Shown: in pieces, positions 15,691 through 16,213 of the stretch
Numbering within the stretch: position 1 is the first letter of the stretch
How the letters are laid out: every line of letters begins with the position of its first letter
Assembly (NCBI GenBank): GCA_041640035.1
Contig: JBEQBC010000001.1
Location: forward strand, 64,001 to 128,000
Reading direction: 5' to 3'
Source of the DNA: Candidatus Nanohaloarchaea archaeon
GTDB lineage: Archaea; Nanohalarchaeota; Nanosalinia; Nanosalinales; Nanosalinaceae
Length of the DNA: 64,000 nucleotides
The notes under the pieces: generated by a model
Database searches by the model: none
Seen by the model: only the letters and a program-made list of their open reading frames with translations
Told to the model about the DNA's origin: nothing
Translations under genes and position numbers: made by a program

Positions 15691-15719
15691 AAACTGGCTT
15701 AAAAAACACATATTTCCGC

Positions 15720-15869
15720 GGGCTCGTAGCTCAGTCTGGCAGAGCACCGGGCTTTTAACAACTCAAACTTAGGTTAAAAGCACTGAGCCACTTATGTGGC
15801 GATGACGAACCGTTTAACCACTACTCGGAAGAAACCCGGTAGTCGCGGGTTCAAATCCCGTCGAGCCCA
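15720..15869 (+). tRNA. tRNA-Lys(UUU) with 76-nt intron at 37/38 (intron 15758..15833)
   Basis: Acceptor GGGCTCG/CGAGCCC-A, anticodon stem CCGGG/CCCGG with CT-TTT-A, T-arm GGGTTCAAATCCC, bulge-helix-bulge-like junction. Confidence 0.93.
15758..15833 (+). ncRNA. Intron-encoded box C/D-type guide RNA candidate
   Basis: GGTTAAAAGC-A-CTGA, hairpin GCCAC-TTAT-GTGGC, then G-ATGACGA; the guide is complementary to the spliced anticodon loop. Confidence 0.7.
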
Positions 15870-15917
15870 CTCAATAACTCCTTAAAAATTTACAAAGGAG
15901 TTAACCTATACACGCAA

Positions 15918-15992
15918 GGACCGGTAGCTTAGCCAGGTTATAGCGCCACGCTGATAACGTGGAGATCCCCAGTTCAAATCTGGGCCGGTCCA
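15918..15992 (+). tRNA. tRNA-Ile(GAU)
   Basis: Acceptor GGACCGG/CCGGTCC-A, anticodon arm CCACG-CT-GAT-AA-CGTGG, TTCAAAT loop. Confidence 0.95.
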
Positions 15993-16213
15993 CTTTTCTC
16001 CGATTTCATCTGTCATCCTATTATATTACTAAAAATTTTGTTCACTGGCGGTAGGATTTGGACTGATAAAAACTTTATATGCTGCTGATTCTCGATAGAG
16101 TTGGATAGAAGAAAATATGATGAGTTGTTAGAGAAATTAGACTCTATAGAAGAGATAGCATATCCTAAGCCAAGTTAGAAAAATTTAAGTCCGTAGTAAA
16201 TGAATAAAACTGC

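Follow-up and report, generated by a model that had tools for sequence, protein, structure and literature searches.

Intron-embedded box C/D guide RNAs are known from the euryarchaeal pre-tRNA-Trp (e.g. of Haloferax volcanii and of Pyrococcus, there called sR50), where the 37/38 intron of the target itself contains the guide (PMC11408192, PMC7994747, PMC2584109), the wobble nucleotide (nt 34) lies at the fifth position upstream of box D' (+5), the guide duplex runs across the exon-intron junction, and the RNA can adopt either the guide helix or the splice motif. We compared with this system the tRNA-Lys(UUU) gene at 15720-15869 (forward strand) in a 64,000-nucleotide stretch of DNA (the window, to which all positions refer) from a Candidatus Nanohaloarchaea archaeon, the intron of which had been proposed, in a sequence-only reading of the window, to encode a kink-turn (k-turn) guide RNA aimed at its own wobble U34. 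The Lys intron shares the listed features with the Trp intron, and we found it best read as a variation on the pre-tRNA-Trp principle, i.e. as a real RNA element and a predicted U34 methylation guide. Unlike the Trp intron, which targets C34, carries two guides on a C/D plus a C'/D' motif and measures about 103-105 nt, the Lys intron targets U34, has one guide and one k-turn, and is 76 nt long; the dual-guide arrangement for nt 34 and nt 39 is absent from it.

Other described systems share further properties with the Lys element. Trans-acting wobble guides likewise place a C/D antisense on nt 34, including U34, and differ in being separate genes with full box sets; they comprise Pyrococcus small RNAs (sRNAs) for the CAA and UAA isoacceptors of tRNA-Leu, for tRNA-Met and for tRNA-Trp, a Haloferax guide for elongator tRNA-Met (PMC7994747, PMC2584109) and the predicted Pyrobaculum guides sR27 and sR46 for U34 of tRNA-Gln and tRNA-Thr, respectively (PMC6009581). 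Engineered half-mer or C/D-free guides, with a single stem or k-turn and one 5' guide, were reported to act in vitro on a target that lies five positions upstream of the box or stem, a rule that held for half-mers with one motif set and even for box-free stems (PMC9670817); these are laboratory constructs with a full-length Nop5, whereas the Lys element is natural, conserved and linked in cis to its target, in a genome with a Nop5 that lacks the N-terminal domain (NTD). The guides of Halobacteria are described as having degenerate boxes and a long D'-C' spacing (PMC2584109), and in this they resemble the hairpin inserts of some Lys introns discussed below. In the literature searched, an intron-embedded guide is named only for tRNA-Trp (PMC11408192, PMC7994747), and tRNA-Lys was absent from the wobble-guide lists of the main texts. 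The sequence-only reading knew of no described tRNA-Lys case, and our literature search turned up none either. The tRNA-Lys intron of S. solfataricus is given as 22 nt (PMC3326292).

The stretch 15720-15869 matches the tRNA family of Rfam (RF00005, 57.8 bits), and ARAGORN, when introns were allowed, identified tRNA-Lys(ttt) with a 76-nt intron at 15758-15833, the canonical 37/38 position; with its default settings ARAGORN overlooks this gene. No other tRNA-Lys(UUU) gene was detected by ARAGORN in the assembly (24 contigs, 978,572 bases, 89% complete), which holds an intronless tRNA-Lys(CUU) elsewhere. Parsing of exons and intron gave a 5' exon (nt 1-37) at 15720-15757, with U34 at 15754, and a 3' exon at 15834-15869. 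The first two intron bases, AC (15758-15759), mimic A38 and C39 of the tRNA. A 14-nt intron lead precedes the antisense guide GGTTAAAAGC (15772-15781), of which 15773-15781 forms 9 base pairs (bp) with 15751-15759 of the precursor, i.e. with G31-A37 and the first two intron bases; G15772 adds a tenth pair only with C40 of the spliced tRNA. The guide is followed by a single unpaired A (15782, position 1 upstream of D'), a D'-like box CTGA (15783-15786), a hairpin of 5 bp with a 4-nt loop at 15787-15800 (GCCAC at 15787-15791, TTAT at 15792-15795, GTGGC at 15796-15800) and a C'-like box at 15801-15808, made up of the 3-nt bulge GAT (15801-15803), the GA for the tandem G.A pairs (15804-15805) and CGA. 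A k-turn consists of a canonical (C) stem, a 3-nt bulge, tandem G.A and A.G pairs and a non-canonical stem; we take the CTGA directly 5' of the hairpin to be the non-bulged strand and the stem, the GAT bulge and the GA to be the bulged strand, which would make the tandem G.A pairs possible. Further downstream lie TTTAACC (15813-15819), a complement of the guide, and the 3' strand of the bulge-helix-bulge (BHB) splice motif (15828-15834), presumably formed by GAAG opposite C32-U35 and then the bulge AA|A38; GRAAGAU|A-like intron ends recur in relatives. The D'-then-C' order is that of the internal motifs of archaeal C/D sRNAs, for which the consensus is RUGAUGA for box C and CUGA for box D (PMC5539422).

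All coordinates that the sequence-only reading had given for the antisense, spacer, CTGA, hairpin, C'-like box and TTTAACC agree with the letters of the window. Its claim that the +5 rule lands exactly on U34 was borne out by a script, which found A15778, the fifth base upstream of CTGA, paired with U34. The antisense has the form expected of archaeal C/D guides (about 9-12 nt, ending one base before box D or D', with the target opposite the fifth base). In the minimum-energy fold of the precursor (-58.3 kcal/mol, z -5.05) both the cis guide-target helix and the hairpin are present. Within the 64-kb window the guide 10-mer is found a single time, where 0.06 occurrences would be expected, and 6 of 100 shuffles had one match.

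To what extent the element is conserved was examined in 70 genomes of the phylum (one order), in which tRNA-Lys(UUU) genes were sought by BLAST and by a 5'-exon pattern, and their exons and introns parsed. A total of 57 genes were readable (a further one, in G039, runs off the end of its contig): 15 of them have no intron, 24 have one that lacks the module, and 18 have one that contains it, the module being defined as guide, one base, [C/A]TGA, stem and RAT-GA. The alignment of tRNA-Lys introns that the sequence-only reading had called for hence shows guide and boxes kept in 18 of the 57 nanohaloarchaeal genes. The distribution over families (labelled f1 to f5, f1 being that of the window) is uneven, as the module was found in 16 of 16 genomes outside f1 (f2, one; f3, six; f4, eight; f5, one) and in 2 of 41 in f1, both of the latter belonging to the genus of the window.

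Outside the phylum, an exon-anchored pattern scan of genomes from 185,579 species, which needs a short distance between splice site and guide and misses longer forms, yielded 28 matches: 13 true modules, six look-alikes formed by the BHB and nine non-tRNA chance matches. Ten of the 13 modules are nanohaloarchaeal and three (L086, L092 and L093) come from genomes labelled Nitrososphaeria or Geothermarchaeota. The introns of the latter three, here called Nitrososphaeria-class, are about 50-55 nt long, join target and guide by 3-4 nt and have a K-loop or a stem of 2-3 bp as D'-C' element. In a sample of 401 genomes of the Nitrososphaeria-type class the module was found in three, with a pattern that again misses forms with a long splice-site-to-guide distance; four other matches in this sample look like chance, and a reversed-pattern control matched eight genomes. 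The two phyla may share the module through descent or through convergence. One nanohaloarchaeal module (L087) sits on a contig binned into a metagenome-assembled genome labelled as a marine bacterium; its intron is identical to that of the sister genome G001, and the contig is probably a mis-binned nanohaloarchaeal one. In the six look-alikes, the match is formed by the intron 3' end (…GAAAGNA|ATGAGG), A38 and the anticodon stem of tRNA-Lys genes labelled Woesearchaeota or Methanosarcinales, so that splice motifs by themselves create anticodon-loop complements. The tRNA-Lys(UUU) genes L091, L094, L099, L101, L104 and L105, on contigs with these labels, share a 37/38 intron and some of them carry further T-arm insertions; the occurrence of near-alike genes under two distant labels suggests binning errors.

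Around the module, the 18 nanohaloarchaeal introns are variable: the length ranges from 47 to 214 nt, the target-to-guide distance from 3 to 143 nt, and the D'-C' insert from a hairpin with a 4-bp stem to more than 50 nt with further hairpins. In contrast to these, the register is fixed. In all 21 introns formed by these 18 and the three Nitrososphaeria-class ones, a single nucleotide serves as spacer, positions 2-10 upstream of D' are taken up by the duplex and U34 lies at +5, and the A opposite U34 is invariant. Over the seven guide positions opposite nt 31-37 there are 13 departures in the 21 introns, all of them G.U-compatible (C to T opposite G31, or A to G opposite U35 or U36). In an alignment of 12 sequences (A2) the TGA of D' and the TGA of C' are invariant, and in the C stem both sides change in all five pairs while 90.6% of cells remain paired; the covariation score of this stem was 0.644, against 0.149 for shuffles (none of 500 reached 0.644) and at most 0.134 for slid-partner controls. 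Close alleles of the intron in DNA contigs of four metagenome runs showed no differences in guide core, boxes or stem; they differ in the hairpin loop (15794, 15795), the lead (15767, and the first guide base, 15772) and the tail (15810, 15811, 15816, 15818 and 15826). Apparent splice 'joints' in the metagenomes, which are DNA contigs only, were rejected as a signal of splicing, since they come from tRNA-Lys genes of different organisms that either have no intron or are not this gene. A search for RNA runs that contain the locus listed none. Judged from these alignments, the Lys module is a conserved RNA element and not a product of chance.

Two further guide modules were found in the same genome, outside the window, in the introns of a tRNA-Trp(CCA) gene (L114, at G000:C1:252267-252404, miscalled Arg(cct) by ARAGORN) and of an elongator-type tRNA-Met(CAU) gene (L115, at G000:C3:18293-18459). 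Both introns contain a guide, one base, ATGA, a hairpin and GAT-GA-TTA, and the script paired the +5 base with C34 in both. The Trp form recurs in f1 genomes without the Lys module. The Met form consists of the anticodon loop, 3-6 nt, the antisense, one base and [A/C]TGA; this loop-gap-guide pattern matches 38 of the 70 genomes, about 30 of them as the short hairpin form by inspection, against four for a reversed-pattern control. We found no description of an intron-embedded tRNA-Met guide in the literature searched. C/D guides are known to give rise to the 2'-O-methylated C34 (Cm34) of tRNA-Trp and of elongator tRNA-Met (PMC7994747, PMC2584109), and since the +5 register hits an established site in both cases, its third landing, on U34 of tRNA-Lys, becomes credible.

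We consider it likely that the Lys intron is a half-mer guide of the box C'/D' type, placed in the precursor of its own target, for a predicted 2'-O-methylation of U34. The anatomy, the conservation, the covariation, the fixed register, the Trp and Met sister modules and the presence of the three protein genes described below all support such a guide. In the proposed mechanism, G31-A37 and the first two intron bases of the unspliced pre-tRNA-Lys(UUU) would pair in cis with the antisense to form the 9-bp helix, closed by a 13-nt loop here and by loops of 3-4 nt in some relatives. On the 3' side of this helix, after the one unpaired base, CTGA and GAT-GA(CGA) would fold around the covarying hairpin into a k-turn for predicted L7Ae binding, and Nop5-fibrillarin docked on it would direct 2'-O-methylation opposite the fifth base upstream of CTGA, i.e. 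to the wobble U34. The RNA would then refold, with the GAAG of the intron 3' end pairing with C32-U35 to form the BHB, and the intron would be spliced out. The binding of L7Ae, the methylation, its order relative to splicing and the action in cis over trans are what we infer.

Several observations weigh against this reading. The internal D'/C' pair of an archaeal C/D sRNA is present, whereas a terminal C/D pair is not: the intron has nothing like box C on the 5' side of the guide, and beyond C' it has no CTGA (nor one with a 12-nt spacer), inspection by eye across the circular junction of the intron gave nothing convincing, and in relatives C' lies merely 7-25 nt, and in several 7-11 nt, from the splice site. 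The statement in the sequence-only reading that there is only one clear k-turn was thus correct, and from its sequence the element would be a natural half-mer without a terminal C/D motif; the second motif pair of archaeal guides has been called essential (PMC8413462). As regards the predicted k-turn, sequence and spacing are compatible with it and covariation is seen in the C stem, yet the 4b-4n pair is standard in only 5 of the 12 aligned sequences and was therefore not counted. The module is dispensable, as 39 of the 41 f1 genomes do without it (15 intronless, 24 with an intron lacking it). The guide helix and the intron 3' GAAG compete for C32-U35; the guide-target helix and the BHB are mutually exclusive, so that a refolding step must be assumed. 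Finally, the Nop5 of this genome (250 residues; gene at L002:1474-2226, reverse strand, contig C5 of G000) consists of the Nop domain only, aligning to 127-375 of S. solfataricus Nop5 (3id5_A) and to 135-376 of that of P. furiosus (3nmu_A), and lacks the NTD, which is the usual fibrillarin-binding part (PMC11213020). This is a general property of the group, since among the best 120 homologs, nanohaloarchaeal where named, 118 have 245-265 residues (the other two 150 and 274), and a search of the genome for an NTD encoded elsewhere, made with one weak query (the NTD of a Nitrososphaeria-class Nop5), found none. In the three Nitrososphaeria-class genomes with the module, the Nop5 open frames are about 382-384 residues long. 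Use of PF08156 for the detection of the NTD was uninformative, as no archaeal control scored above its cut-off.

The sequence-only reading had made its case dependent on the presence of the C/D proteins, and L7Ae, Nop5 and fibrillarin are indeed all encoded in the genome, fibrillarin (216 residues) and Nop5 by adjacent, overlapping genes. A model of the complex places residues 1-19 of Nop5 on residues 88-130 of fibrillarin with a score of 0.78, against 0.01 for the best control. The mark set by the tool was attained by 58 of 80 solved complexes and by two of 110 mismatched pairs; at least 97% of contacts are the same between runs, and the partner pLDDT is at least 92. The model supports a contact between Nop5 residues 1-19 and fibrillarin, although for this textbook pair a pass may echo solved complexes.

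An alternative that we consider unlikely is that the same guide acts in trans after excision, the intron, probably circular, forming a ribonucleoprotein (RNP) that methylates other pre-tRNA-Lys molecules or the mature tRNA. For the Haloferax tRNA-Trp intron, action in trans and a stable circular form have been described (PMC11408192, PMC3326292), and in-vitro work on tRNA-Trp favoured action in trans (PMC2584109). The duplex in this genome also fits, as it comprises 10 bp with the mature tRNA against 9 bp with the precursor. In this respect the sequence-only reading, which stated that the full 10-nt match forms only after splicing, was right for the window, but the case is an exception: among the 21 introns the duplex with the precursor is the longer one in ten, equal in ten and shorter in this genome only. 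The introns nearly always start with AC, like A38 C39; two of them (L009 and L036) start with CC, and there the guide has a compensating G for T opposite intron base 1, a covariation indicative of a duplex that spans the junction of exon and intron before splicing. In seven introns (L013, L020, L026, L027, L086, L092 and L093) no more than 3-4 nt connect the target with the guide, which strongly favours a cis hairpin over action in trans. Moreover, the excised intron would mask its own guide in the window's genus, as its minimum-energy fold pairs 15772-15778 with 15813-15819. The internal masking complement TTTAACC noted in the sequence-only reading is hence real and was kept in the sister genome G001 via a compensated change of G-C to A-T, but it is confined to the window's genus (L004, L005) and was not seen beyond it in the introns compared. 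The longer precursor duplexes, the AC start, the covariation in L009 and L036 and the cis helix in the precursor fold lead us to favour a guide that, from the 37/38 intron of its target, pairs with the RNA before splicing, probably in cis.

A second alternative, which in our view is quite improbable, holds that the module is an L7Ae-dependent structural or timing element that does not direct methylation, in which the antisense would keep the anticodon loop helical and the k-turn would bring in L7Ae, and that it chaperones folding, protects the loop or delays the splice motif. It would account for the single k-turn, for a Nop5 without its fibrillarin-binding domain, for the competition of guide helix and BHB helix for C32-U35 and for the loss of the module, with the tRNA kept, in most of f1. 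It would leave unexplained the 1-nt spacer and the fixed duplex positions throughout the set, as well as the register on nt 34 in three tRNAs of the genome, in two of which, Trp and Met, the site is known for guided methylation (PMC7994747). The retention of a fibrillarin that is translationally coupled to nop5 in a genome of roughly 1 Mb also speaks against it. A chance origin, or a by-product of a BHB helix that needs an anticodon-loop complement, is hardly credible: the six intron 3'-end look-alikes among the 28 scan matches speak for it, but the BHB helix here uses a separate GAAG (15828-15831) and the guide lies mid-intron, the module is conserved and covarying in relatives, and when the intron was dinucleotide-shuffled 200,000 times, a Watson-Crick complement of at least 10 nt to the 17-nt anticodon stem-loop arose 125 times (one of at least 9 nt, 524 times).

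The guide reading predicts an undescribed wobble modification of archaeal tRNA-Lys. Related modifications are known for other tRNAs, as 2'-O-methyluridine (Um34) and its 2-thiolated form (s2Um34) occur in Sulfolobus tRNA-Gln and tRNA-Leu (PMC7668247), and the wobble U of H. volcanii tRNA-Lys is given as modified and chemically unidentified in PMC2584109. With respect to other U34 enzymes, an Elp3 over the cut-off is present in this genome and a match to the Ncs6/NcsA-type family TIGR00269 is not. Over the 70 genomes, Elp3 (TIGR01211) was found over the cut-off in 51, with no such match in f2, f3 and f5, and TIGR00269 in 41, with none in the genus of the window (0/3), in genus g2 (0/6) or in f3 (0/10). 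TIGR00269 was over the cut-off in 7 of the 18 genomes with the module versus 27 of the 39 without it (plus one of the latter below the cut-off). One hypothesis is that ribose methylation replaces 2-thiolation of U34; module and thiolase are only loosely linked, and kinship confounds the comparison. Taken further, and put forward tentatively, the Nanohaloarchaeota may have a stripped-down C/D system of NTD-less Nop5, fibrillarin and L7Ae, served mainly by cis-acting single-k-turn guides in the introns of pre-tRNA-Lys(UUU), elongator pre-tRNA-Met and pre-tRNA-Trp, in which each target-loop-guide hairpin sets nt 34 at +5, Um34 or a 5-substituted form of it (xm5Um) in tRNA-Lys replaces 2-thiolation where an Ncs6/NcsA-type thiolase is absent, and the same arrangement emerged or persisted in a few Nitrososphaeria.

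If the guide reading is true, tRNA introns have repeatedly been used as built-in guides for wobble modification, which would provide a selective reason to keep introns in very small genomes. Intron-embedded guides are textbook knowledge for tRNA-Trp alone, and the Lys(UUU) version, together with the widespread Met version in the same phylum, would extend the set. It would also be a half-mer C/D RNP that occurs in nature, where such RNPs have until now been studied as laboratory constructs alone, and its combination with an NTD-less Nop5 would bear on how the RNP measures and assembles. The 21 introns offer natural sequence variants for direct biochemistry.

Searches for other C/D RNAs gave the following. 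An Rfam scan of 15700-15900 with expectation values up to 10 returned the tRNA and chance-level matches only; two CD-box families, at 14.3 and 8.3 bits, were rejected as far under their gathering scores. A genome-wide script found no full C-D'-C'-D candidates and four C...D pairs with a terminal stem of at least 4 bp. The best stand-alone C/D sRNA candidate of the genome (G000:C2:120183-120240, reverse strand) combines a terminal stem of 7 bp with a TGATGA box, a hairpin in its interior and CTGA. A loose D'-stem-C' scan of the genome gave 119 matches, mostly chance, and was uninformative on the architecture outside introns.

Two types of hairpin are found repeatedly in the tRNA-Lys and tRNA-Trp introns of Nanohaloarchaeota, whether the guide module is present or absent: a stem GAAGnnn...nnnCUUC followed by G, and CCGGC-UUCUC...GAGAU-GCCGG with a U.U mismatch (found among L013, L014, L015, L016, L020, L022, L024, L026, L027, L030, L063 and other introns). 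These may be protein-binding or mobile insert modules. Other irregularities of tRNA-Lys genes were an apparent second insertion in the T-arm region in G028 (L032) and, in G031 (L019), an incomplete second copy of its 3' half, located after the gene. In the window, a tRNA-Ile(GAU) gene lies at 15918-15993, 48 nt downstream of the tRNA-Lys gene; relatives, too, have the two genes as neighbours, and their tRNA-Ile(GAU) is often interrupted by an intron of 60-75 nt (L017, L018, L022, L030 and L033).

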